A DNA stretch of 52,157 nucleotides from NCBI RefSeq assembly GCF_004010195.1, contig NC_057718.1, forward strand, positions 56,180,603-56,232,759, written 5' to 3'. A program made the position numbers and the translations under genes. The notes below the pieces were generated by a model. The model saw only the letters and a program-made list of their open reading frames with translations, searched no databases and was not told the DNA's origin. Shown here one piece after another: positions 9,544 to 52,157 of this stretch; position 1 is the first letter of the stretch; each line of letters starts with the position of its first letter. Source of the stretch: Chiloscyllium plagiosum. Its lineage: Eukaryota.

Positions 9544-12416
9544 ACTGTGTTTCTAAAAACTGAACTCGTTGTTATAGGTATTTAATGTATTGACTCAGAA
9601 ATGCTGTCTCCTGAGATACATTAATAAACATAATCTGCTGTTCAATCTTGACTGAGTATCACCACACATGTGCGGACATGTGTGTGCTGCATACACGTAT
9701 CAGATTTACATTTCGAGACAAGTGGCTGTCTATTGCAATATCATATGGGAAGTCTTGACTGTTGTTTCATTGCATGTACATGTTAGGATCAACAGACCAT
9801 CATCTTGGATCAGTGGAAATTTAATCAGATAAATTTTAATTCTGTGTTCATTATTATGTCCGTTAGAATTTTCATGACACAGTTAGGGTGCTATAATCAT
9901 AAATGCAGTGTGAAAATCCAAATTAAACAAGTATACTAGTGATAATGCTTAATTAACACTGAATTACAGATCATTTGTGATGATAATTTTCCTGAAAACA
10001 CAAGTTCAACTTTAACTAGTAAATCTAATTAGAGAAAGGGGGAATACACCGAGATATCTATTTAATTTTATCTTTCTGAACTGGATCTAATGCAGCGTCC
10101 AGCATACAACAGTGTTTAATTGGCTGTCACAAAATCAATGGATTTCCAGTATTGAAATAGTATGAATCCTTAACCCTCCTTTCCACATTTTTTTCAACTA
10201 CCTAGAGTGATAGTCATTGTTGTCCATTCTGCACTTTAATAAAATAGAAGGTGAGCAGAGATTTAAAACTGTTCAGTCTGTATGCCTCACAGGAGGCAGA
10301 TTTTGCCATACTTTGCTGCTGCATTCAGAGCCTTTACTGCCTGGTACTGATGTAAATGAGGACGAAATCTTTACAAACAAGAAAACAAAAAGGCTATTTA
10401 CTAGATCTTTGTTAATAATTTCTTGTGTACAGCGTCAACAAAGAATTATTTGATTCCATGAATATACAAATATAGGCAAGTGCAAAAATATGTTTAATTT
10501 ACCTTGTTGTATTTCCAACGTTCAAGTCACTTTTTAGCCATAATTAAAAACTGAATAAAATCAATGTTATGCTTCCAAAAGGGTCAAACTCATTCTCCAG
10601 CATTTTATGAAGTAATAAATCAAAACAGGAGCATTCATGATCACACACAATGTTTCCTGTAATGCTTTTTCTGTAGTTTATAACATTTGCAATGTTACTT
10701 TTAAGAAATAAACATTTATATATTGTTGGAAAGGAAGACATGTTGCCAAAGGTTTTTACTTTATTTTCATCAGGACAAATACAAGAATGCCAAACTCCAA
10801 AAAAATCATATAGCAAGAGAAAATGGTGCTGATTGGTTTGCAAGTTGACTGTGATTGGCCTCTTCATGAAAACACCTAGGACATGAGGAACTACACACTT
10901 CCCAAGCTCCCAGATAATTTAAAAACAGGTGAAAGACTTAAATATACTCTTTTTCTTTGCAAAGAACATGCCTCTGCTATGTACATTGCACATCATATTT
11001 GCTTGAGCAAGCATAAATGAGCCACATTTTGAAATTGATTGATTATCTTAAATTGATTGTTAGTATAGCTGGCAGGTATTGTTCAGTAAGTGCTAGTCAA
11101 TAGCAGAAGAACATCTAATAGTAAATATTTTTATTTGGGTTTTGCAAGTGTAGGCAAAAGTGTACCAACAACCAAAAGAACATACTGTTTGATTTGATCA
11201 GCCAATCACTGAGACATGCTGGCTACGTACCTGGCATTGCACAGGCGCTAGATAATCATGTGATTTATTAACTAACCTTATATAGCATCCTAAATATGTA
11301 ACTCCTTAAAATTCGCTATTCTTTTCTCTTTCTTCAGTTGTCTTACCAAACCACAGGGTAGAGCAAGGAGGCAGGTCTTGAATCCACCACTGCAGAAATG
11401 GAGATAAAACTTTGTCCTAATACCATTAATCTGATTACTCCAGCTATACAGACAACTGTCCATTCCTCCAAGAAGTCCAAGTTATTGTGGCAACATACAC
11501 TTTCACATAAATGTTGTCATTTTGAACTATGAATAATGATGGTTGAGGCCCAAATGTTCTTTCCATCATATGGCTGACCAAGAATCTCTGCCATCACTAT
11601 GTCTTAGAAGGATTTATAAGTTAAAAATCAACATGTTTGGCCATGTTATGAATGCATCTTCCTTGGTTATCAAGTCCTGAACTGGGCATGAATGTAGAGC
11701 TTCTGAGACAAGGTTGGCACAAGTCCATCTTAGATTATTTAAGTATTCAGAAAGAACAGATCGCTTAGCAACATAATCCTTCAAGACTAATGGTTTGTCA
11801 TTGCATTAAACCTATTAATTAATCATTAACAGGCAAGAATGCCATGAAGTGAGGACAAAGTTTGATCACTATTCCTGCTGGGCTGGATCCAAGACCTGCC
11901 TTCTTGCCCTACCTGTGATGGACATCACAACCTTGTTTTGCAGTGCCAGTGCAGTCTGATCTAGGTTACTGAAGACTCCTACGAACTATGTATATAGGCA
12001 CCTGACAAGTGCAGTTGGGTGCGCTCTCCCTTTTGCTGCCTACACTTATTTCATCCTTCACAGAGGTCTCCCCTATTGTATTCTGCAGTAGCTAGGTTTG
12101 CCGTTTTCATGGCCTACATGTCCTCTCTTCCCACATCTTGAGGATTGGGAAAGGCAGAATGGATCACAGGACTCAGACACATTAACATCAATTTTGCCTC
12201 CTTGACATCATTGAGCCCATGGATAACCTTTTGTTGATAGGTGCTGCCGATAAACGTTTGGGGGTTGGTTGTGGATTCAAATTCAGACATCCTCTTTTTG
12301 CTATCTCCAGCAATTGCACAATTGTAAATGAAATTTATAAGTAATTGGATTATTGTTCTGGCTTTCCTGATGGGTTGTGGTCAGTATGTTCATCGGGGCA
12401 GAGTAATGAATGATGA

Positions 12417-12890
12417 TTTTATTGTCACTTGTATTTAACAGTGTGAAAAACAAGAAAATAAAGTGAAAAACTTTCCACTGTTGTCATGACCAAGCACCAT
12501 TTTGAATAGTTTTAAGAATAAGGAAAAAAAATAGGAAAATACAGCTTAAAGTGAGCCAGTCAGCCTGATGCAGCTTATCGTCAATGATACCTGCACCACC
12601 ATCTCTCCTCCACTGCCTCACTGCCACCTACACTGGACCTAACCAATGTTGAAGTCGCAACTTTTCATGCACCATTTTACGCTGCTGGGCCGATTTCTCC
12701 TCCGCACTGCCTCATTGCTGCCTGCACCAAACCCACCAACATTGGAGTCACATCTCTTGCCACTGGACTCACCTTGTTGATGTTGCTGTGATGCCCTTCT
12801 GCCACTGCTTTGCTGAAGCTGCTGATCCTCAGGGGCCATCTTTCCCTGCTAGGCCTACCTTGCAGCATTGCCTCTGATGTAGCAGGATAA
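12417..12890 (-). mobile_element. Interspersed repeat with a Rex1/Babar-like 3' tail
   Basis: The minus strand ends ..TTTTTCACT..TGTTAAATACAAGTGACAATAAAA, the same tail as at 15130-15203 (+). The family name is inferred. Confidence 0.45.
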
Positions 12891-14087
12891 ATTCTTTGGC
12901 TTACCAAAGGGTCTACTCCTTCCAGAAAGGTACAGTTCCCCCATTTTCATCACTCCCACACATATACAGGCTTGTTCTTTCATTTCCTCCTAATCTATCC
13001 TATAATTGCTATTTCCATCTGAACCTATTACCAACTTTCCCGCTCAATGAACATACTGACAACAACTACATATCCGTCCCTTCTGCATGGCAAGTGGGAC
13101 TTTAATTTTTCAATCTCATGCTGGCATTTCGAATAGTCTGCAGTGAGGGCTTTGTTTTCTTTACCTGTGTGGTGCAGAACTCTGAGAAAGACCTGTTGGT
13201 TCTTTCATTTCTTGGTCAGCTCATCCACAGCTGTTTGGACTACATTCCGACCATTGACAGCGTGCTGTTCCTCCTGTATGGTCTATCACACTGGATCTGA
13301 AACTGTCGCCTAGTTCCTCCTCTCATGCTCTACTGCTTTGACTCTTACTTTCTCCAGTTCCTGATTCACTTCCTGCAGTTCCTTACATGGTTCACTTTCT
13401 CCCATTTTTTATCTCACCGCTGCACCATGCAACCTTGCTGAGTTTTAAAGCATATTTCCTTTCAGCTTTTTGATGCCGTTTCCCAACTTTTCTGTCCCAC
13501 AAGTGCCAGACGAGATTTTTGCTCATTGCAATGCTTGACCCATCTGGGCCACTTCTTATTTCGTAATTTTCTTAATACCTCCTCTGCCATTTCTCCTATT
13601 GTTTCCTTCTAATTTACTGCTTCCTCACTCTCTCTCTCTGATGGGTCCCTGATTCTATATTAGCTGCTTTTTCACTTCTCTGCAACTCTAAGTCCCAACC
13701 CTTTTCATGTTTCTTACCTCATGAGTTCTCTATCCTACCCTTGCTTCTTTGTATCTTCGTGGGTCCTCCAACCCTATATTCAGTTTGCCTGCCTGATTGC
13801 ACCCAAAAATTCCTAGACCATCCAAGCTCTGAACTCTGATTGTTTGTCCTCCTCACTTTACAAGCAGTTGGTTTCTGGCTGACTCACTGGTTAGAAACTT
13901 TCACCCTTTATCACCCACTTGAATCCTGGCTATCATGTGGGGCAGCTGCCTCTTAACTCAGGTTTAGGTTGGATGTCCAAGAGTATAAGATTGATGGGTT
14001 CAACTTTAGTAGTTGCGTCAGCAGTGGTATTGTGGGCCTAGTCTGGTATTCCCAGAATGCTTGGTAGCCCTGGAGCGGACTGTGATA

Positions 14088-15000
14088 CCGGTCGTGTTAA
14101 AATTGTACAAGACTTTGGTTCAGCCGCATTTAGAATACTATGTGCAGTTCTGGTCACCACATTACCAAAAGGATGTGGACATTTTGGACAGGGTGCAGAG
14201 AAGGTTTACGAGGATATTGCCTGGTATGGAAGGTGCGAGTTATGAAGTGAGGTTGAGTAGTTTAGGATTGTTTTCAATAGAAAAAAGGAGATTGGTGGGG
14301 GGACCTGATTGAGGTCGACAAAATCATGAAGAGTGTAGACAGGGTAGATAGAGATAAGCTTTTTCCCAGGGTGAGAAGGATTCAATAACGAGAGGTCACG
14401 CGTTCAAGGTAAGAGGTGAGAAGTTTAAAGGGATACACGCGGCAAGTACTTCACACAGAGGGTGGTAGGTGCCTGAAACACTGCCAACAGAGGTAGAAGA
14501 GGCAGGCATGGTAGATTCATTTAAAATGCATCTGGACAGATGCATGAGTAGGTGGGGAGCAGAGGGATACAGCTGCTTAGGATGGCGGCACGGTGGCTCA
14601 GTGGTTAGCACTGCTGCCTCACAGCACCCAGGTCCCAGGTTCGAGTCCAGCCTCGGGTGACTGTCTGTGTGGAGTTTGCACATTCTCCCTGTGTCTGCGT
14701 GGGTTTCCTCCGGGCGCTCCGGTTTCCTCCCACAGTCCAAAGATGTGCAGGTTAGGTGAATTGGCCATGCTAAATTGCTCACATTGTTAGGTGCATTAGT
14801 CAGGGGTAAATGTAGGGGAATGGGTCTGGGTGGGTTGCTCTTCGGAGGGTCGGTGTGGACTTGTTGGGCCGAAGGGCCTGTTTCCACACTGTAGGGAATC
14901 TAATCTAATCTAATTGAGCGATAGGTTTAGACAGTAGGTTTGGATCGGCTCAGGCTTGGAGGGCTGTTCCTGGGCTGTAAATTTTTTTTTGTTCTTTGTA
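14088..15000 (+). mobile_element. CR1 LINE 3' end, split by a SINE at 14584-14912
   Basis: LKLYKTLVQPHLEYYVQFWSPHYQKDVDILDRVQRRFTRILPG (ORF 14013-14312). The 3'UTR resumes after the SINE (GATCGGCTCAGGCTTGGAGGGC..CTGTAAATTTT). Confidence 0.9.
14584..14912 (+). mobile_element. HE1-like V-SINE
   Basis: A and B boxes, V-domain and (TAATC)n tail, as in the other copies. Confidence 0.92.
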
Positions 15001-15203
15001 CAGGGGCGTTGGTGTGCCTGGAGCCTGTTGTGAAAGCCTTTCACCTCCTTTTTCGACCAGACCACAAGAAAGGAGGGAGAACTCTGTTTTTAGTTGTATT
15101 CTAGTTATATTTTAACATCTTCTGTAACTCAAAATGGCACCAGTGCAAGGCGGCATACTACACTTTTCACTGTATTTATTTGTTAAATACAAGTGACAAT
15201 ACA
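15001..15203 (+). mobile_element. Interspersed repeat with a Rex1/Babar-like 3' tail
   Basis: CAAAATGGCACC..CTTTTCACTGTATTTATTTGTTAAATACAAGTGACAATA, shared with 12417-12503 (-). Confidence 0.45.
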
Positions 15204-16291
15204 ACACTCAATACAATTCAGAGGTCGTATAAACAATTCTAATCAAAACCCACCCAGGGATGCCAGTGTTGTCTCTGCTTTGGACATGTCAACATGTTTA
15301 TGTGTTATAAACATTTTACCAAGCACTCTTGATGATAAGGAGGACAAAGGGACACAGAATTCAACTTGTGGTTCAACTCAGTTTTATGAATAATATATAC
15401 CTTATTAAAAACACCGTGTGAGCATTTTCCAAATTCCCACAATATTTGTTCTCTATCTGTCTTTATCTGTCTGAGAAAGGATATTACTTGCAATGATCCA
15501 TGTGTTTGAGCTTGGCCGTTGAAATTGCCTTCCTCTCCAACATAGCGCTGGGTCTCTTCCATGAAGGTGGGTCTCCAGGTCAGGGCAGATCTTCTCCAGA
15601 GTCTTCTTGGTTGCTGGAAGGTCTTTCCCCAATGAATGTTGTTGGTACTCAATCAGCCTGCACATTGCAAAACCCAAAACAAAATGTTTATTGTTAGATG
15701 TTCTTTTGCTATTGACTAAAATTTACTGAATATTCCTGAGTGTTCTGTGGTCTTTGGTGCATGGGTTATGAGCTGGGTTCAAAGCATCCCATGGGATCGC
15801 GCTGATACCCTTGGCTGTTGCCAGACCAGGGAGGTGTAAAATGCACGTTCTTAAGCATTTGCTGCAAGTCAAGATGCCAGAAAGTCTGATTGATACATCT
15901 CCAATACACAACCCTAGGCCGATTGTAACTGGTTACCCCTGAATCTTTGTGACCTCTTTGATCTTGCTCTCCATTGTTCTCTGAAAATGATAGTTGCTGA
16001 CTACTGCTGAATTTAGTTAAGCAAATCTTTTGTCAGACTTGATTTCTTTGGCTGTGAGTCAATTTATAATATCCAATTTTGGACCTGAGACCATATTCAG
16101 CTCAACAATTCTAGAAGGAATTGATATGGGAATGTTTGTTAAGCCGATTTATCTTTTGTACAATGTGACTCGATTACTTCTCCCTTAGGAATGACAATAG
16201 TCCAGCTATTTATACAACCATTGTTTACGGTGATGCAGTTGTCAGAAATAGCAAAAACATCCCTGTATTTGAGCCCACATGTGGCCTCTAT

Positions 16292-19200
16292 ATGTTGTTT
16301 AAAAGCACCCACCAACAAAGGGTTCTCCATGGGCTTGACAATGTCGAGGAGGTAAAATTAATGTTAATGTGCCTGAGTCCCGCATTCCATTCTGCCTTAA
16401 CCAATCCTCAGAATGTGGGAGGGAGGGACCTGCAGGCCATGAAAGCAGCGATCCTAGTCACTGTAGGATACAATAGGGAAGACTGTTTGGAAGGATGAAA
16501 TAAATGTAGGCAGCCAGAGAGAGAGAGAGAGAGGACCCAAATTCATTTGCTAGGTGTCAATGGACACTGTTCACAGGAATCTTCAGTAATCTAGATCAGA
16601 CGGCACTGACACCATAAAACAGGACAAACTGGCCACTGAGGCATCAAGGAAAGCCTGCGAAAATTTTGATCCCGTAGACCACACACAGAACAATGGATGA
16701 CCAGGAGGATGGTCCAGGCTCGGGAGAAAGAGATCCTTGAATCAGAGCCCTGTCAAATAAGGCAAGGGGGAAATTCACCGAGTAAAAGCCCCAAACCCCA
16801 GTCCCACGTAAAGGAACATAGGGGGTGACCAAAACAAGGGGCGTTATTATTGGAGCTACCTACATCTATATGCTCATCACGAAGTGAGAAATAGGTTTCA
16901 GCAGCAGGGAGACTGAGGCAGCAGCAGTCACTGCAAGGGTTATGCTACAATTGTGGGTGCAGAGGCAACTTCACCAGGCCTGCAGGGTACCCAGGCAGTC
17001 AGCGCCACCATAAGAGCCAGGCTCAAGACCCCAGTCAATGCTGCAGGAAGGACTGGATACACAAGCAGCCAGTTAATTTGGTCGGGGAGATCACACAGAC
17101 AAACGTAGAGAAGGAAGTCCTACTGTCTAACTCTTTATACCCCCAGCTGAATACTCTCCCCAAAGCATGGTGGAGCTGCATCTGTTCAGTGCCAGATGGG
17201 ACAGTGTGGAACAGCCCCTGCTTGATGGCAAGGTGGAAGGCCAGTCTGTTGTATTCTCGTGAGACAAGGGAAGTCAAGAGCGAGACTTAACTTATCCCGA
17301 CATTTTGATAAGACATGTGCACCAGTAAGAACATTTCTTCTTCGTGGATTCGCAAGACGGTTTTAGGAGAGTGCGAAGATAGAACCACAGAAGTTAAACT
17401 GGGAGACATAGTCTACCATCATCCAGCAGTGTTGGTTAATCTCCATACGGATGCTGAGGCGATTTTAGATTCAGAACTTAATGTTTGACCCAGCCAATTG
17501 CATTTGGCAAATGCCTGAGGTTAATGCAGCCCCAGCAGAGATTATAAGAGACTCATACACACAGAGAATGTGTACCCTGGGGCAATAAGACCCACTGCAA
17601 TGACTGAGGATGACCATACAGTTTCCCCAAGCAGGCAGAGGGGAAAGTGAGCATTCAGAGCTTGTTAGTATGAAGTATCCTATGCTCACCAATGTGGCTG
17701 GTTAAGAATCTGGATGGCTGTTGTGGTTCACCATCAAATACAGGAACTGAATAAAAATACCTCAATCATGCACTAACATGGGCGATTAGCCCTGAAAACA
17801 TGATGATGCAGGCCCAGTGGGAAAAGTATTTCACCATACTGGAGATCTGTAAGGGGTTTTGGTCCATTCCCCTACACCGACACTGCCAATATGAATTCAC
17901 CTTCACATTTCAGGATCAGCATTACACATGGACCTGCTTGACCCAGGGTTTTCACAATTCTCCATCAATATTTTATTGGAGGCTGACTAAGGGCTAGAGA
18001 GGTTTTCCTGACCAGACTGTTTGGTACAATCTCCTCCTTCAGATAGAGACAAGGACTGAACATTTGACACTTACAGGAACTGTTAACCTTGGGTTCTCAT
18101 GAAGAGAATTAACACTAAGAAGGTTCCAGGTCTCATGCTTGGGAATTGTGATAACTCAAAGGGAAACATGATATAGTGCATCGCGGACATAATTCATTTG
18201 CCCCTCCCAGGGAAGTGTGCTTGCTGTGTTCCTTTCTGGATCTCGTGGGATACTGTCAGAACCACATTGATGGTTTCACCACTAAAACTGCTCCACTCTC
18301 TGACCTCCTCAAAAGCAATTCACCATGGGAATGGACTGAACAGCACACAGGCCATAGTGCAAGATCCCACACTGTAGGTACCCGACCCAGAACTTGCTCT
18401 CACCTTGAAAGTTGCAGCAACAGATGCCATACTGGCATTTGTACTTCTCTAAGGATGACACAATAAACTCAGATCAGTAGCCTATATCTCTCAAACACTT
18501 TCACCAGTAGAGCAAGGCTTCTGTATATGTGAGAAGCAATTGTTAGCCATGTTCTGAACAAAGCAACCTTTTGCCAATATTGTCGGCCTGAATCCCCCAA
18601 CCATTCTGACAAATCCTGCTCCCAATCAATTTTTGCTGGATGGCAGGATTAAAGATGGTACGGTCATCCCAAATCACATTGAGTGCTGGACCTTAATGTT
18701 GTAGGGTCCCAACATTGCAGACAAACATACCACAGTGCCCACCTTCCTAGCCAGGAATTTGAGCTACAGAGGAGAATCCCATGGGTTTCAGGTAGTGGTA
18801 ACAAATTTCCCTAAGGGACTATTTGTGCCACAACAAAACAGAACAAGATCCAAGACACATGGGAAGCAGTTAGAGAGATCCCTCTAGATTACATCAGTAG
18901 ATGGATCCTCTACAGTGGAGGATGGACAAGATGGTACCTAACCTCTCTACAGTCTGCCCTGCCTCAGCTGAGGGCCACACTCTCTCAGAATTGCAAAGGA
19001 CCCACTCTGTACTACATCCTACATCAGTAGATGGATCCTCTACAGTGGAGGATGGACACTGAAAGACAAGATGTCGTATATACTGTATATATGGAGAACC
19101 ACTGGGGCAAACCCCTGATAGAGTTGCACTGAAGCTCTCCAATTAAATGTGCACTCAGGAGGCCAAGTAGTAGCTGTAGCCAATGTGATCAGCCACCCTG

Positions 19201-20050
19201 AAGCATTTTCCCCGCCCAGCATGTACGTCTGCAACAGTTTAACTGACACTTCCTGCCACTGTGGGAAGCTAGAGGATTCATCTTGGCAGGCAGGAAACCT
19301 CTATACATCCATGCTCAAATTTTTCTCCAAACTGCCCAAGATCATGAATATGACATCACTAATGTTAGAGCCTAGCATTGAACTTCCCCAGTTAGGAACA
19401 TAAAAACTGACAAATTGACTGAGAAGGGTGCCCACAAAGAAGAAACATGACACCATCACTGTGAACCAAATCAAGGTTGATGATCTGGTACAGTCTCAGA
19501 ACAGCAACATGAGTTAAAGCAAATGCAGGAGGAAACAATATCTATCCCATAGAGCGGGTTAAGTAGTAAGGACAGACATTTCTCAAAGATGGAAGGTATG
19601 TGGTACTGGCCCAGGACTGAAATCTAATTATTTATCAATGCCACAATATCCAGGGTCATCAAAGGACAGAAACCACATCTAACAAAATTAAGCAATTTCT
19701 TGGTGGCTAGAAATGAGAAAAGACATAAAACGTTATGTCAAGAATTGTGTCACCTGTACCCAGAATAATCCAGATAAATGTGTCAACACAGAAAAGTTAA
19801 GGTGTGCTAGGCCAGTAGCATAACCATAAACTGATCTTCAAATATACAATGTCTGCCCCATACCACTCTGTAAAGGGGAATATAAGCATGTCCTGGTCAT
19901 TGTAGACATTTAAAGGAAATGCAGAGACGATTCCCAATCAAGTGAAAACCACTAAAGTTGCAGTGGATTTCTTACTTCAGCATGTTTTCACTACATGAAT
20001 TCTTCATTGCAATATAAGTTTAGACCAGGAATTCCAATTCACAGCCCAGA
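16292..20050 (+). mobile_element. Decayed endogenous retrovirus-like provirus (gag, protease, RT, tether, RNase H, integrase)
   Basis: Colinear broken motifs: gag-like ORF 16292-16498; zinc knuckle CYNCGCRGNF..C (16943-16983); protease VEGQSVVFS*DKG (17233-17271); RT PMWLVK..YRELNK (~17689-17762) and KYFTILEICKGFWSIPL..YTWTCLTQGFHNSP (ORF 17800-17997); thumb SFLDLVGYC..PWEWT; tether LKVAAT..VAYIS..CEKQLLA (18378-18720); RNase H VDGSS.V.DG..MYVCNSL..LPLWEARGF (18890-19300); integrase H..GH..WW..CVTC, LQI..KHVLVIVD, ISLDQEFQFT (19640-20050). Confidence 0.88.
18890..19058 (+). repeat. Exact 39-bp direct repeat separated by 91 bp
   Basis: TACATCAGTAGATGGATCCTCTACAGTGGAGGATGGACA at 18890-18928 and 19020-19058. 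Confidence 0.95.
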
Positions 20051-20999
20051 AAATGGATGTAGGAAGCCTAGCAACTTTCCAGAACATTGCCCCAAGTTGC
20101 AAATCTGTAAGTGAATCTGAACAATGTCAATAAAGTGTCTCAGAATGTCTTAAAAAGCTCACTGAACCCAATGATGATCTTGATCCTGAATTCCAATATA
20201 ATTCAAGATCACGCACTGCAAAGTATCAAATTGTAATATCTAAGAATTGAAACATGATCAAAGCTGAACTTGATTCACTTGTAAATGATCACAAGTCTTT
20301 TTGGTTTTTGGAAATAAAAACCATAAGAAGCAGCATTATTGCTTTAAGTTTCAGAATGATTTGACATACAGGTATTATAAATCAATGAGAATACACTGCT
20401 ATCTAAATGTAGAAGACAGACATATTCAGATAATACACTGAAAGTGACTTAGATGGCCTGTATTCAAATCCCATCTGCTCCAGAGTTACCTCATAACATC
20501 TCTGAATGGATTGACCTCAAATAGCCAATTCTGTGGTTAATACAGAGTTCTGCCTTTAACAGTCAGTGCACAGTTTTCTGAGCACTGCAGAACTCACCAA
20601 GATCAACAAAGCAAAATCACAGCACGGTGTCATTGTTTAATAATGAAACGTCCAAGCTTTTAAATGGGGACTGCATTGCTGCGGTTTATGAAAAGATTGT
20701 GCTCACAGCAGTTTTTCTGAGTGCTTAATTTCAGTGCTTCACAGATGTGTTCCAACTTACTGGAAGCCATTTCATTCACTTGGACTTGACACTTTATTGC
20801 TTCCTTGCTGTCAGATTTCACTGCATCATGAGAGCAATCATTGCAGCAGCCACACTAATAGCTGAAACATTAATAGCAGCAGGCGCAGCAACAGAAGCTG
20901 CTTTTACCATAGTCATATGCTGCTCCATAGGACAAAGTGAATGGTCACAGGGTTCCAACTGGAAGGAACAGGTTAACCCAGCGACTGTAAGAAAACAAT

Positions 21000-22650
21000 G
21001 ACATAGTTCAAAGTTAGGAAGATGTATGTCTTGGTGGGATGTAGGCACATGGTGGTGATCCCATGTATCTGCTGTTCTTGTCCTTCCAGGTAGTACAGGT
21101 CACAGGTTTGGAAGATGCAGTCTAAGGAGCTTTGGTGCATTGTAGTGGTCCATCTTGTAGATGGTACACACTGCTGCTAATGTGTGTCAATAATGGATTA
21201 AGTAGGTTGCTTTTCTCTGAAGGGTGAGTACCTGAGTATTGTCAGAACTGCACGGCATGAGTCTCTCAAAACAAGGATGATATCTGCGTGGCTTCCTGAT
21301 TTATGTGTCCTCAGATTCCTGAGCCACACAACCCTAGAGTCATAAGTCTGTGGTCAAAGAGGAATAGGATTCTCAAGCCAGTGTTCTGTTCGATCTCTTT
21401 CTGTTTTATTGCTTCTTGAGAGTAGAGGTTATGTAGTCTACTTCTGACTGTGTTGTGGCTTATTGTTAAGGGCCCACAACATGGCCTTGTTTGGAATAAA
21501 TTCTTCATGCACATGATTTCAAAGAGATATTCAGAGTGTTCTTAAAAATACTTTCTCTGTGATCTTGAGATTGGGTGCCATCCTTGAGTTGTGAGAAGGG
21601 GATCTGTTTTGGAAGCTGATATTTGGCCTGTGAGCAAAGTAACTAGACAATGAAGGTAACTTAAAGAAATCATGTTTGCAATGCTGGAAGAACTGGCTTT
21701 GGTGAGGATTCTTCTATGTTTGCCTGAAGATTGCTGGGAATGCTTCAGCCTTACCTTTTGCATTTATATGTTGTGCTCTTCTATCATTGAGGATGGGAAT
21801 ACTTGTGGAACCTCCTCCAATGAGTTGCTGAATCAAAACTGGATGTGGCAGGATTGCAGAGCTTAGACCTAATCTATTAATTGTGGGATCACTTAGATCA
21901 GATTCCCTACGTTGTTAGATTAGATTCCCTACAGTGTGGAAATAGGCCATTTGGCCCAACAAGTTCATACCTACCCTCCGAAGAGTAACCCACCCAGACC
22001 CATTTCCCTCTGACTAATGCACCTAACACTATGGGCAATTTAGCATGGCCAATTCACCTGAGGAAACCGGAGCACCTGGAAGAAACCCAAGCAGACACAG
22101 GGAGAACGTGCAAACTCCACATAGACAGTTGCCTGAGGCTGGAATTGAACCCGGGTCCCTGGCACTGTGAGGTTGCAGTGCTAACCACTGAGCCACGGTG
22201 CTTCCCCCCCCCCATCCCCCAATCACCATGCCACCACCACCATCGTGCCCGGTCACTGTGCCGCTCTGTCTTTAGCTGTTTATGCTGTTTGGCATGCAAG
22301 TAGTCCTGTTTGGTAGCTTCACCAGGTTGACCCCTCATTTTCAGTTATGCCTGGTGGTGCTCCAGGCATGCACTCCTGCATTCTGAACTGAACCAGGGTT
22401 GATACTTTGGCTCGATGATAATGGTTGAATGGGAGATATGCCAGACTCTGAGGTTGCAGATTGTGCTGGAGTGCAATTCTGCTGCTGTTGATGGCCCACA
22501 GCGCCTCATGGATGTCCAGTCTTGAGTTGCTAGATCAGTTTAAAGTCTATCTCATGTAGCACGGTCATAGTGCCACAAAACACAATGAAGGTTATGCTCA
22601 CTCAATGTGAAGGTGGAACTTCATCTCTATAAGGACTGTACAGTAGTCTG
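21000..22650 (-). mobile_element. Fragments of a CR1/L2-group LINE (including an APE endonuclease region), split by a SINE
   Basis: The minus strand at 22270-22640 carries degraded endonuclease-type text (GGTGAAGCTACCAAACAGGACTACTTGCATGC, GAGGCGCTGTGGGCCATCAACAGCAGCAGAATTG). The same family appears in + orientation at 43660-44700. Confidence 0.55.
21892..22202 (-). mobile_element. HE1-like V-SINE with an internal deletion and a duplicated tail
   Basis: Reverse-complement A and B boxes and V-domain. The tail TTAGAT(C/T)AGATTCCCTAC occurs twice (21892-21931). Confidence 0.9.
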
Positions 22651-23289
22651 AATGGTGTCCAAGCCTTGCATATGTGAATATGGACTCCTCCGTTATCCAT
22701 GGAGTCATGAATGCTTGCAGTTATGGATATCTATGTTAACCAAGTTCACACACAGCTATTCCTGGAATTACAGCTCCTATGGAGATCTTCAAGGGCAATG
22801 GAAGTACTTATGTGTGTGTTGGAGTTTGCCAATGACCAGAAACTATAAGCAGACTTTTCCTGATAAGTGCATGTGGTTGTCTTGTTATAGGAGGTTAACC
22901 ATATATCAGGCAGTTGGAGGAACAAAATGTGTACAATCAAAATTATTTATTAGGTTATTACAGTTTTGATTTGCATTTTGGTATTGCAGACATAAATAGT
23001 TGTAATTTCAAAGTTACAAGTTATTTTTCACTTACATTTCAGTTTAAACCACTAATTATGGAAATGCCTATCTCAAAATGTTAAACTGAGATTGAATGTG
23101 CTGACCCGTGCCTAGCACACCTGTGAATCTCAGAACTATACTCCCATTTCCTACCCCATCAAGGGACTACATACCCCACCATCTCAGGAATATGGTTGCC
23201 AACTCTGTATTGAGATGATATCCCCTCCCTGCCATCTCAAGAATGTATCCTTTCCTTGTGTGTCTCAGGGATTACACCTGAATACCTCC

Positions 23290-28521: not shown

Positions 28522-29853
28522 TCCCTCCCCCTCAGAGACCGATAACATAGACTGGCCCTTTTACTTGGAGAGCCCCCTGCTGTGTTTTAGCATCAGGCCA
28601 AATCCTTCTAACTTATCGTCTGCTATGTTTGGCATGTAATGCATCAGAGCTTGCCTCTTGCACCAGGAGCACCTCAGTAGAATTTCATTCCCCTCTTCTG
28701 GCAGCAAAGGTGACAAGGTAGCTATATCTGTCATTTCTATCTTCGATTCTGAGGACTCATGGACGCTTGACAGAGAGGGTGAACCCATGGGTTCTGGCAG
28801 CCTTTCTGATTGTCTTGAGGGGCAGCTTTCATTTGGTCTGCGTGCTTGTTCAGGATCGTCATACCTAACCAAATTTTATACGCCTTTGGTCCTGACCTCA
28901 CATCAACCATGCCTCTTAACCATGTGGTGCCATGTCCATGATTCTTACACCAAACTTCGCCCCCTGTATCAATCCATCTCTCTCACTTGACAGAGGCTTG
29001 AGTCTGGCATTGGTATTCCTGATGGTGTTTCACCCTCTCCCCCCCCACCAGATCTGGGAAGTTCAAATTTAACCTGGTTCAGAGTCTTTTCTCCGTTAGT
29101 AACACTGCCGATGCTATCCCTGTAGTTGCATATGGGGTAGTCCTATAATCAAATAAGAACTATGATAGCTTGGTATTTAGCAAGGCTGTAGGCTGTTTCT
29201 TCAAGCCTGCCTTTGTAGTTTAAACTGCTCTTTCTGCCAGTCCATTGGATGATGGATAGTATGGCACTGTCCTTATATGTCAAATCCCATTTGAGTTTAG
29301 GAAATACCCAAATTCCCTGCTGGTAAACAATGGCCCGTTATCTGTGACTAATACCTCCTGGACTCTGTGATAAGATGTGTGCGGTTTTTCTATCATTGTC
29401 CCCGTGTTTGAAAAATGGACCCTATACACATTCAGCCACCTGAGTGGCATCTACAATGATTAAGAACATTGAACCTGTGAAAAGACCTGCATAGGCAATA
29501 TGCAACTGAGTCCAAGGTTTACCTGGCCATTCCCATATTGGGGAGCTGGTGGTGGTAACTTTTGTCCTTGTTGGCACTCTGGGCACTACCCACCAACATA
29601 GCTATGTCTGCATTCAGGTCTGGCCAAAAGTCTAAATGTCTTGCCAACATCTTCAGTTTGGAAATCCCTGGATGACCCTGGTAGATTTCAGCCAGTATTT
29701 TGTGGGACCTTTGCTCGGGAAAAAATAACGCATTCTCTCCACATTCTGGACCTAGTCCTCGATGGCAAGGTTGAACGAGTCAAGCTTATCCTAATGCATA
29801 GACGACTGTTGCGAATAAATTTCTTCAGGATCGTTCCTTACTCTTGTTGCCAC

Positions 29854-39351: not shown

Positions 39352-40308
39352 TTTTTTAAGAGGTATTTTTATTGAAAAATAGATTTTTTAATATTACAAC
39401 AATAACAAAACAATGCAATTCAAAACAATACAAAGAAAGAACAAAATAAATGTAAAAAAACCCAATCACCCTCATGTACAAATGTATAAACATGTTTAAA
39501 ATACAAAAATCCCCAACTAACTACTTAACTAAATAAATAATAACTAACAACAAACTAATAAATAATAATAATACGACTCAGCCAAACAAAACACTAACTC
39601 TCGAATATCGAGAGCATTAATTTTCACCTATTCATACATTTGCAGTTCCCCACTCTCTGGATATTGGACTCATAAAGCACAATTGTTACGGCTACATAAA
39701 AGCCCTTATTAGCGTGGCAGACAAATCTGTGTTGAGGTTTCCAAAAAGGGCTGCCATGTTTATAGAAATTCTCCGTTTTGTGGTGTACCATACTTGTGAG
39801 AAAATCCAAGGGGATATGCTCCATAACAATCTTCCGCCAACCCAACAGGCCCTGGGGAATTTCAGATATCCAACCTAACAAGACATTCTTTCTCATGCAG
39901 AAAGTGAGGATGTTGAAAAGTTTTTTCTTATGCGCATCTACAGGGAACACACTTGGCAGGACAAGAAGAAGAAAGATCGGGTTCTGCTCGACCCTTACAC
40001 TCAAAATTCCCTCCATTGCACATCCACAGTGCTCCAGTATGCTGAAGCCTACCGCAGGACCAGAGACAATGGGTAAGAGTGCCCATACCAACTTTACACT
40101 TGGGACAGATTGAAGATACTCCTATTTTAAATTTTGTCAAATGATCCAGAGCGAAATGGACCCTGTGGAGAATCTTCAACTATTAACCATGGGTAGTATT
40201 GCAAATTTATATCTTTCTTGCATTTTCCCAAATATCTACCCATGCCTCTGCAGAGACCTCAACACCTAGCTCTCTCTCCTACACCCTGCAGAGTTGATTG
40301 AACTCTGC
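39352..40308 (-). mobile_element. L1/Tx1-clade LINE 3' end
   Basis: Minus ORF 39928-40179 KILHRVH..SICPKCKVGMGTLTHCLWSC is the C-terminal CCHC (zf-RVT-like) motif. T-rich 3'UTR, AATAAA and A tail at ~39352-39375 on the minus strand. Confidence 0.85.
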
Positions 40309-46330: not shown

Positions 46331-47275
46331 ATGATTCTTTTGGTTTCAGGATACATCCAGTAACTTATTCAGCCCCTTTATTGTCTGATCTCAGAAGTAT
46401 ATTCTTGTGTCAATTGAAAGGTCTTGCAATTGTTCAATGCTTTTCTTCTCAGTCCTCTTGGCCACTGTCTCAAACACTCAAAGCTTGCCCATCCACTCAT
46501 TGATCTGACCATCTCTATCAGAAAACATAGTGAACCCATGGAGATGGTCAATGGGAAGGACTGGATCTCATCCAAAGAAGGGTTGGTGAGGACATTAACC
46601 TGATGATGAGTGCAGGATGCTATTATAGCATTAACCAGTTCTGAATTTGTCAAAGACATCCATGAGTATGAGAACATCCTTGATCCATTACTATTCAAGT
46701 CAAAGTCTATAAAATCTTTTACAAGGCCCTCCAGAAGTCTCTTGGCAAACAATGATCCATTTTGGTATGAAGTCACTTCCCTGCTTTAGCCAAAGTACAC
46801 CTTTATCAAATTTGCCAGTAGTCATCAATATCAGCAATCATCCTGATTCCAGTAACACCACTCTGTCAGCACAGTCAGCTTTAGTGTTGCTTTGTGTTCT
46901 GCTTAATCATGAACAGTTACCAAAACTAGAGAATTGAGGCTGTCAGAAAAGATGAGTTGCTTCACCTCTATGGCCTTGTAATGAATCAGCTGATAGAAGA
47001 CTCAATTCTCCTCCCTCATCCTCCTCTTCCAGCACCTCAAATGTTACTGTGCCAGTTTAGACTCCCTCATTATTTAGGTGGAAGTTGGGCTTTTCAGTAA
47101 TGGTGCTGTCTATTCATACCAATGTTAATCAGCTGAAATAGCCCACCTCAAAGCTAGCAATCCAATTGTCAAACTGGAGTAATTCTCCATATTCCTCATT
47201 TTTGACATGAGACTCCTACTGACATAAGCAGTAATCATTCTTCCTGTCTTGAGCCTTTCTGTTTGTAATCACACA

Positions 47276-47560
47276 CAGGATCAGCATTTATTGACATTAT
47301 TGGTATTATTGACCATTCCTAACTGCCCAGTCATAAGTAGGCCTGATTAGGTAAAGATGACAGATTGCCTTTCCAAGGACACTAGCTAACCTGATGGGAT
47401 TTTCTGACAATCAGCAATGGTCATCATTAGACCCTTAATTCCAGATGCTTTTCATTGAATTCAAATTTCACCATGGAGTGATTTGAACCCAGGTACCCAG
47501 AACATTAGCTGAGTTTCTGGATTAATAGTCCAGTTGTACAACCACTAGGGCATTGCCTCC
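47276..47560 (-). mobile_element. SINE family B nested in the Gypsy RNase H
   Basis: CAGCATTTATT..AGACCCTTAATTCCAGAT..TTTGAACCCAGG..CCCAGAACATTA..CCACTAGGGCATTGCCTCC. The RNase H motifs continue on both sides. Confidence 0.8.
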
Positions 47561-48659
47561 TCTGTGACAGCAGTGCTCTTAGGCTGAGGAAACTGGTGTC
47601 ACTTTCCAGTATGAAAGGGAAATGGAAATCTGGGAAGCCCAAGAATGGTTGATGAGACAAGCTTCTGCTTGTGGGTGCTGGAGTCCAACTCCCTGTGATG
47701 TATTGCACATCATTCATCCTTTCCAAACCAATCCTTTATCATTCTTTGATTTTCTTGACAGATCATGGAGTGAGGCAGACAACTGTACTTGCCCAAATCT
47801 CTTTTAGTCACTTCTTGACCAAGGAACCCAACGCAGATTCCCCCCCAACTTAGGCTGGGGCTATTCAGCTACCAGTTGGACTTTCTCTCCAACAGGAGTA
47901 ATGTTTTCATTGATAATGAACTTCCCCCAATGAATTGTGCTTATTTTAAGAAAAGTTGCTTTATTCTTTCAAGTTAAGCTGTGACAAATTGACTAAGATA
48001 GTGTATTGTCTTTATAAGGGTCTTCTCAAAAATTGAACAGGAGATGAGTATGTCATCTAAATAGACAAAGATGAACTTAAGGTTACCAAAAGCTTTATCC
48101 ATCAGACACACAAAGGCAGAAGGAGCAATACATAGGCCAAGTGGCTTTCATAAAGTTCCTCAGTGCCTTTTTGGAATACCATCGCTTCAATTTGTTCAGC
48201 AATGTATAGACAGTTGTAACTGTGGGCCAAACTGAGACTGAAGAAATGGTATGAACCTTAGAACTTGCAATTCTAGGTGGTGGGTAAGCATCATTTTAGG
48301 TCTTTGCACCAGTAATCGACACAGTTCCTCAGTTTTCCACTTTGTTTGCTCACAAGGTCTGCGGATGAAGCACATGGAATTGATGACACTTCGATGACAC
48401 CTCACTCCAAGCACTTCTGCAGACTGTCCCAGACATCGTCCCAGTGATGAGTGGGATCTAGTGATAAGGGACCTTTACTGAACAGTCACTGTTAGTCATA
48501 ATCCCATGATTTACTAGGCCGTAATACCCAAAGTCATGTTCATCTTTATGGAGAGTTGTCCCATACTTGGCAAGAGTAGAAACAAGCTTCCTTCTCTGTC
48601 CATCTTTGGAAATCCAGTGAGATATCTCCTCCAATCAGTCCATGACCCACGACATTATG

Positions 48660-51429: not shown

Positions 51430-52157
51430 CTATATGGATGGATGAAGACTCGCCATCTGAGGTAGTTTGGGCTGAGGTTAGGAATAGGAAAGAGTTTCTA
51501 CAGGCCTCCTAATAGTCCTAGAGATGTAGAAGAAAGGATTGCGAGGATGATTCAGGAGAAGAGAGAAAGTAATAGGGTGGTTGTTATGGGGGACTTTAAC
51601 TTTCCAGATATTAACTCGGAAAGCTATAGCTCGAGTTCGTTAGATGGGTCAGTGTTTGTCCAATGTGTGCAGGAGGGTTTCCTGACACAATATGTAGACA
51701 GGCCAACAAGAGGTGAGGCCATACTGGATTTGGTTCTGGGTAACAAACCAGGCCAGGGGTTAGAATTGGAGGTAGGTGAGCACTTTGGGGACAGTGACCA
51801 CAATTCGGTGACTTTTACTCTAGTGATGGAGAGGGATAAGTGTGCACTGCAGGGCAAGAGTTATAGCTGGGGGCAGGGAAATTATGATGCGGTGAGGCAT
51901 GACTTAGGATGCATGGCTTGGAAAAGTAGGCTTCAAGGCAACGGCGCAATTGATATGTGGAGCTTGTTCAAGGAACAACTATTGAGTGTCCTTGATAAGT
52001 AAGTACCCGTCAGGCAGGGAGGAAAGGGTCGTGTGAAGGAGCTGTGGTTTAATAAGGAATTGGAATCCCTTGTTAAAGGGAAGAGGGCGGCCTATGTAAA
52101 GATGAAGCGTGAAGATTCAATTGGGGCGATTGAGAGTTATAAGGTAGACAGGAAGGA
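51430..52157 (+). mobile_element. CR1 LINE ORF2 APE endonuclease region, running off the window end
   Basis: ORF 51547-52002 VVVMGDFNFPDI..LTQYVDRPTRGEAILDLVL..GDSDHNSV. A premature stop is present at 52000-52002. Confidence 0.92.

Follow-up and report, generated by a model that had tools for sequence, protein, structure and literature searches.

A dead, doubly truncated provirus in the Chiloscyllium plagiosum genome, likely from the basal snakehead retrovirus-related assemblage

Broken gag and pol sequences in a stretch of 52,157 nucleotides of Chiloscyllium plagiosum (NC_057718.1, positions 56,180,603 to 56,232,759; hereafter, the window) raise the question of which lineage of reverse-transcribing elements left them there. 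The original prediction, made from the sequence alone, had placed here, from position 16292, a deep-branching endogenous retrovirus (ERV) with a tether and a second RNase H, possibly lokiretrovirus-like or snakehead-like. According to the present analysis, the window contains at 16194 to about 20045 on the forward strand a dead provirus truncated at its 5′ and 3′ ends. The element is very probably a canonical retrovirus, likely a member of the basal assemblage related to the snakehead retrovirus (SnRV) that has been named clade Huo, and it likely belongs to the shark lineage of the whale-shark ERV rh_ty_ERV2. The predicted locus was right, although homology begins at about 16194 and not at 16292, and the predicted motifs were recovered at their positions in the window.

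Anatomy of the provirus

The provirus shows the order gag–protease (PR)–reverse transcriptase (RT)–tether–RNase H–integrase (IN), in which the tether lacks the first catalytic Asp and the second RNase H is a separate domain (Table 1). This order, with a tether and a further RNase H placed after RT and before IN, characterizes canonical Retroviridae. The dual RNase H emphasized in the original prediction is therefore present, and since it is the standard retroviral layout, it classifies the element and does not make it unusual.

Table 1. Features of the provirus and of a second gag copy of the same family in the window
Feature	Coordinates	Strand	Evidence
gag, 3′ part (capsid region to nucleocapsid), broken; 5′ part absent here	16194..17190	+	DNA match to second copy, rh_ty_ERV2 Gag
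Degenerate Gag zinc knuckle, C-x2-C-x4-N, then frame break	16943..16990	+	Sequence
Aspartic protease remnant, catalytic motif damaged	17190..17500	+	Alignment with N-terminus of P0008 from 17337; earlier part matches rh_ty_ERV2 by eye
Remnant of reverse transcriptase with QG-type motif B and without YxDD	17617..18349	+	Pfam RVT_1, identity with P0008, trees
Tether, old Gypsy-type RNase H fold without first catalytic Asp	18345..18800	+	Pfam, alignment column, tether tree
39-bp duplicate of RNase H start and 91-bp piece of very high-copy repeat	18890..19019		Exact repeat, depth, organism B contig
Second RNase H remnant, retroviral RNase H1-type	19027..19432	+	Identity with P0019, profile score
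Remnant of integrase with HHCC zinc domain and the core as far as second Asp, cut before Glu of DDE	19627..20045	+	Pfam, P0188 alignment, IN tree
Second gag-only copy, same family, head-to-head with main copy; broken, interrupted at ~12400-12790	11934..13590	-	blastn, translations

Pol was reconstructed by frameshift-aware alignment to natural relatives, a check proposed along with the original prediction, and X was placed at every break. All parts aligned with the relatives, with identities of 196/339 for PR-RT, 113/203 for the tether region, 67/128 for RNase H, and 58/182 for IN. About 18 stop codons and 15 frameshifts were counted across 17337-20045, a figure that depends on the alignment. 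In addition, the YxDD motif is missing from RT near 18030, the Gag zinc knuckle is degenerate, and IN ends after its second Asp. The provirus is predicted to be inert today.

In the RT remnant, the GFWSIPL motif begins at 17854 and is followed by YTWTCLTQGFHNSP at 17923. The window RT matched Pfam RVT_1 with 36.3 bits (cut-off 29.6) and was 61% identical to the natural protein P0008 over 232 columns. As for the tether, the segment 18345-18698, with the LKVAAT motif at 18405, matched RT_RNaseH_2 (PF17919, 40.9 bits) and RT_RNaseH (PF17917, 31.9 bits), both above the cut-off. In the examined part of the alignment, all 14 Gypsy rows carry Asp where the old RNase H has its first catalytic residue, and the window element and P0008 carry Ala, in agreement with the non-catalytic tether that had been predicted. 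A JAMM1 match of the tether (E 0.01) was judged to be due to chance.

The second RNase H proved to be real. When read with X at the breaks, it scored 47.6 bits against a profile from which it had been left out, the best of 200 shuffles reaching 2.7 bits, and its 67/128 identity (52%) is with the natural protein P0019, which itself matches Pfam RNase_H with 73.3 bits and retains the four acidic motif residues. A profile search found no second RNase H-type domain in the 14 Gypsy proteins. When the remnant was searched as single-frame pieces, none of the three pieces had a Pfam match and there was no PDB match; the RNase H profile in a plain six-frame search missed even this element's own domain. 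The first VDGSS motif, cited in the original prediction as the start of the domain, is a recent duplicate, and the domain continues from the second copy. The motif occurs twice because 18890-18928 has an exact duplicate at 19020-19058, with a 91-bp insert of a high-copy repeat between the two. Sequencing depth in the insert bin is 47,000-84,000, compared with about 10-70 in the adjacent bins, and the insert is absent in organism B, where a contig joins 18867 to 19020. The exact 39-bp direct repeat that flanks the insert is long for a target-site duplication. The insert had no Rfam match, as was the case for the whole of 11000-23000.

Among 18 single-frame pieces of RNase H, protease, knuckle, thumb, Gag, and flanks searched against Pfam, one exceeded its cut-off, namely the zinc domain of IN (Integrase_H2C2, 30.5 bits, cut-off 25.5), in agreement with the predicted HHCC integrase. 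The 16194-16621 part of gag shows 73% DNA identity with the second gag copy of the window (blastn, 431 bp, E 1e-67), which retains the 5′ gag region lost from the main copy. Capsid-clan look-alikes of Gag were found in the ESM Atlas at 0.89-0.94 and serve as a lead only. The predicted Gag CCHC exists as a knuckle remnant at 16943, but it reads C-x2-C-x4-N before the frame breaks and is thus degenerate; the piece had no Pfam match in the single-frame search, and a complete CCHC is present in rh_ty_ERV2.

Relatives and placement among retroviruses

With the degraded RT as a query, six of seven candidates among shorter proteins matched, which led to P0001 and P0002 and, by cluster look-up, to P0008; among proteins of 733-2333 aa, none of 67 candidates scored. 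A search of 1.84 billion representatives gave 198 matches, the top named ones being frog and coelacanth Pols annotated as "NYNRIN-like" or "Gypsy integrase-like". P0008 had no match in viral contigs and one locus from 37 stretches in metagenome contigs (31% identity, not used). The closest relatives, P0008, P0001, P0002, and P0019, come from metagenome or read assemblies, are 52-61% identical to the window element over PR, RT, tether, and RNase H, and share its VAAT-type tether and VDGSS-type RNase H start. Unlike the window copy, these relatives have open frames, YVDD, and all RNase H acidic residues. RT of P0008 is 54-58% identical to that of the frog and coelacanth Pols, 48% to SnRV, 35-41% to lokiretroviruses, at most 37% to foamy viruses, and at most 35% to Gypsy.

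Phylogenetic trees were constructed for RT and both RNase H domains, as had been suggested in the original prediction. SnRV is represented in them by P0197 (L002), recognized by its RT match to the SnRV row in the supplement of Wang and Han, and lokiretroviruses by four proteins, P0028 among them, with the PFG-type RT motif of that supplement. Foamy, epsilon, and beta rows are IMG/VR records picked by motif (6 of 16, 3 of 3, and 5 of 11 were used, respectively), while gamma and Gypsy labels were assigned by motif and Pfam content. For the RT tree of 68 rows, 17 rows of a first tree were dropped.

In the RT tree, the window element and P0008 fall inside canonical retroviruses (100/99), with lokiretroviruses (99/99) and Gypsy (100/100) separate. 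Within canonical retroviruses, the pair is sister to the coelacanth and frog Pols (95/85), and SnRV, foamy viruses, and classes I and II are together on a separate branch (90/95). The RT+tether tree (42 rows, LG+C20 mixture) gave the same placement, canonical retroviruses being supported at 100/99, and the tether tree agreed with RT (window element inside canonical retroviruses, 99/98). Both RT and tether are thus placed inside canonical retroviruses and apart from lokiretroviruses and Gypsy. These trees, together with the domain matches, support the predicted deep-branching ERV with a tether and a second RNase H and its contrast to Ty3/Gypsy elements.

The frog and coelacanth "protein NYNRIN-like" Pols (XP_073459965.1 of Aquarana, Rhinophrynus, Latimeria, and A0A803JYW4 of Xenopus), compared by Pol alone, have the same domain order as the window element and are sister to its group in the RT and RT+tether trees. 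They differ in that they come from other hosts, some with many intact copies, and are not sister in the RNase H tree.

The relationship to SnRV, as well as those to lokiretroviruses and foamy viruses discussed below, was assessed by approximately unbiased (AU) tests under the simple LG+G4 model, with some of the groups named after a tree had been seen. Grouping of the window element with SnRV alone (p=0.10) and of the whole basal set with SnRV (p=0.44) was not rejected. SnRV resembles the window element in its QG-type RT, its tether plus RNase H, and its single Gag knuckle. It differs in having no BLASTP Gag match, in the positions of its integrase and tether branches, and in env and accessory ORFs, which were not seen in the window copy. 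The N-terminal coiled-coil Gag region reported for SnRV and Ovex1 looks similar, by eye, in the second gag copy.

More evidence was obtained from rh_ty_ERV2, the whale-shark ERV of Xu et al. 2018 (PMC6001957, S2 Data). The window Gag frame from 16292 is identical to it at 43 of 74 positions without gaps (counted by eye), and matching runs go on through the knuckle into the protease, also by eye. The two elements have in common a shark host and a close capsid stretch of Gag, and this match indicates that the lineage has likely already been published from a shark. They are not identical, and the window copy is broken and truncated at both ends. The text of S2 Fig of PMC6001957 has rh_ty_ERV2 under "Clade Huo", next to Snakehead_retrovirus, Nan_par_ERV7, La_ch_ERV4, and Ca_mi_ERV1; its filing in that clade was read from the label order. 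The snakehead/clade-S option of the original prediction pointed to the right neighborhood. The predicted sparse characterization of the host group was overstated; beside the whale-shark ERV, SnRV-like ERVs in elephant shark are reported by Han 2015.

Several observations weigh against the assignment to clade Huo and to a SnRV-related retrovirus. SnRV joined the window group in none of the trees; the RT and RT+tether trees present "Huo-like" sequences as a grade, with SnRV closer to foamy viruses and class I. The name Huo is taken from the order of labels in the published figure, together with AU tests that did not reject a grouping with SnRV (p=0.44 and 0.10), and the comparison with rh_ty_ERV2 runs from Gag to protease. 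BLASTP of the window Gag against SnRV Gag showed no similarity. The RNase H tree, which is unrooted, separates the shark pair from the frog, coelacanth, and NYNRIN sequences by a 97/92 branch and leaves it on the side of SnRV and class I. The partial and degraded integrase weakly joins lokiretroviruses (83/85) and not SnRV, in a polytomy that also includes NYNRIN and the frog and coelacanth Pols. The trees were built without ERV-L, ERV4, named Ovex1, Odin, fish foamy-like, lenti-, alpha-, and deltaretroviruses. Finally, neither env nor a long terminal repeat (LTR) was found in this copy, which bears on the infectivity of the ancestor.

A serious possibility, somewhat short of an even chance, refines the assignment: the shark, coelacanth, and frog "NYNRIN-like" ERVs may form a separate basal lineage of Retroviridae, not monophyletic with SnRV, so that clade Huo would be a grade. 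The branching outside SnRV, foamy viruses, and classes I and II, supported at 90/95 for RT and at 90/89 under the mixture model, argues for this, as do the unmatched Gag and the position of the integrase away from SnRV. However, neither branch is starred, SnRV monophyly was not rejected (p=0.44), ERV-L and ERV4 are absent from the trees, and Xu et al. 2018 describe five clades "with strong supports". In the S2 Fig text of that paper, Pet_mar_ERV1 and Ps_yo_ERV1 are listed within the clade Huo block, and Wang and Han state that a lamprey lokiretrovirus had earlier been misplaced among retroviruses on a long branch. For these reasons, clade Huo as published may in part be an artefact.

It is very improbable that the element is a lokiretrovirus or a chimera with lokiretroviral parts. 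Lokiretroviruses and Odin elements (Wang and Han 2021, 2022) resemble it in the tether plus second RNase H and in a similar integrase type; its tether is Gypsy-like enough to match PF17917 and PF17919, and its partial IN groups weakly with theirs (83/85). Such a find would be the first in cartilaginous fish, as Wang and Han 2021, whose screen included shark genomes, count no lokiretroviruses in three Orectolobiformes genomes. However, motif B of the window element is QG-type and that of the lokiretroviruses in the supplement of Wang and Han PFG-type, and the RT, tether, and RNase H trees each set the window element apart. Lokiretroviruses have their RT in a separate clade and carry an F-like env, related to the fusion protein of Mononegavirales. 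Grouping with them was rejected in the AU test (p=0.00026), which refutes this option of the original prediction for RT.

No better is the case for a Ty3/Gypsy or Odin-type LTR retrotransposon that acquired an RNase H and never had env. It could draw on the env that was not found, on the automatic UniRef name of the relatives ("Gypsy retrotransposon integrase-like protein 1"), and on comparisons that included no Odin sequence. However, RT (100/99) and tether (99/98) lie inside canonical retroviruses, the copy stops short of the env position, and Odin elements, which lack env and have a sea-anemone host, are reported as sister to the lokiretroviruses, from which the window element is excluded. 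Neither an RT within Gypsy nor a single active RNase H, the marks of Ty3/Gypsy membership, was found.

The least probable candidate, a foamy-like ERV of clade Tu, is favored by PDB searches, in which foamy Pol was the best match of the RT piece (43 bits; murine leukemia virus 26, Ty3 19) and of P0008 (217; 198 and 160, respectively), but these searches gave no competing SnRV-like entry, the trees overrule them, the AU test rejects grouping with the tetrapod foamy viruses of the tree (p=0.00054), and the window element keeps a knuckle remnant, a Cys-His feature that spumavirus Gag lacks. In addition, ERV4 and ERV3/ERV-L have no Gag zinc finger in Table 1 of PMC4299795, so the knuckle remnant argues against these groups as well.

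Age of the insertion, missing ends, and surrounding repeats

The stretch or a part of it is present in 20 sequencing runs from eight studies and two organisms (A and B); four of these runs were compared with the window in detail. In the listed contigs of organism B, 58 of 2396 bases (about 2.4%) within the element and 27 of 1222 in the flanks are different (hand-summed). One of these contigs crosses the 5′ junction, and no piece among those listed crosses the 3′ junction. The same insertion in both organisms indicates that it predates their split, and the equal divergence inside and outside the element suggests neutral decay. Judging from standard retrovirology and the intact relatives, the ancestral virus would have copied its RNA using RT, with the tether as a structural connection domain; the second RNase H, as the four acidic residues of P0019 imply, would have degraded the RNA strand, and the HHCC-DDE integrase would have integrated the virus. 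Germ-line entry would predate the split of organisms A and B and would have been followed by loss of both ends, after which the provirus would have decayed without selection.

The summed depth at 85% likeness is about 1-5 times the single-contig depth over most of the element; depth is not copy number, and this suggests few close copies. No RNA data set was listed among those that contain the sequence. A polyA single-cell run was read to about 2%; its 71 placed reads all fit only partly, almost all on repeats, and one contig set guessed to be RNA gave few short low-depth pieces, possibly DNA; neither was used as evidence.

The search for env in 20051-21900 and 15220-16190 gave no tblastn match with E<0.003, the queries including the SnRV genome; the copy ends inside IN. 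No flanking direct repeat indicative of LTRs was found, both provirus ends being lost. The region 15220-16190 was rejected as the LTR or env of the element because its depth is 20-60 times higher and it had no match. On the reverse strand, this region represents a mid-copy repeat (depth 210-970, compared with about 10-70) with broken Cys-containing frames, which abuts the 5′ break of the provirus. A 93-bp piece of the repeat, 83% identical, is located at 11082-11172 (+) near the second gag copy, and in both places the repeat frame is antisense to the adjacent gag. The repeat frames had no Pfam match over the cut-off.

In the 5′ region of the second gag copy, a short stretch matches by eye the translated start of rh_ty_ERV2. 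The two other LTR-element remnants, taken in the original prediction as single-RNase H Gypsy-type elements, are located at 28815-29743 (-), where only a Gypsy-type integrase is left, and at 47131-48446 (-), where an RT with a YxDD-type motif and a Gypsy-type RNase H that keeps the first Asp are interrupted by other sequence. The window also contains remnants of long interspersed elements at 39627-40121 (-) and 51466-51999 (+), several repeats of 200-400 bp, and a repeated element similar to short interspersed elements (for example, 14584-14914 and 21915-22201). Within the 3′ flank, an open frame at 20818-21000 (-) has a hydrophobic, Ala-rich tail directly before its stop codon and thereby resembles the last exon of a membrane-anchored protein; it had no Pfam match.

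NYNRIN and the meaning of the basal group

The mammalian host gene NYNRIN (CGIN1), represented by P0069 and identified from its KH and NYN domains, is a domesticated gene that contains KH, NYN, tether, RNase H, and IN and has no RT. The window element, unlike NYNRIN, shows no sign of domestication. In the RT+tether tree, the window element, P0008, the frog and coelacanth Pols, and mammalian NYNRIN form one clade (95/96), in which NYNRIN has 33% of columns filled and a long branch. In the trees of single domains, NYNRIN nests with the frog and coelacanth Pols (tether 96/92, RNase H 98/94, IN 95/81). When the tether is taken alone, placing NYNRIN outside the canonical retroviruses is not rejected under either of two constraints (p=0.08). 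This nesting (P0069, P0015, P0188, and P0189) and the possession of the second RNase H by NYNRIN are what a retroviral origin would lead one to expect, more than one from Ty3/Gypsy. From these sequence comparisons, the branch that holds the window element is the likely source of the pol part of mammalian NYNRIN.

As for published views, NYNRIN is described in one paper as Ty3/Gypsy-derived and in others as retroviral. A literature search found no statement that names this group as the donor of NYNRIN, with the 2009 work of Marco and Marin, the likeliest place for one, outside the search. That work, by its title alone, reportedly counts NYNRIN as retroviral.

The broader proposal is tentative and, in our estimate, appreciably less than evenly probable: the shark family and the coelacanth and frog "NYNRIN-like" ERVs may together be among the deepest branches that canonical retroviruses have, lying outside the snakehead, foamy, and class I/II groups, and may be the donor of the tether, RNase H, and integrase of NYNRIN, a placental gene of mammals.

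The locus itself is ordinary, being another decayed ERV from a lineage likely already sampled in whale shark. Together with its intact relatives, the element provides a cartilaginous-fish tip in a poorly named basal group in which the tether is still similar to the Gypsy RNase H. If the deep-branch reading is true, its integrase, similar to the "CGIN1-like" one of lokiretroviruses, would represent the ancestral retroviral type, and lokiretroviruses would not have acquired a substitute of their own.

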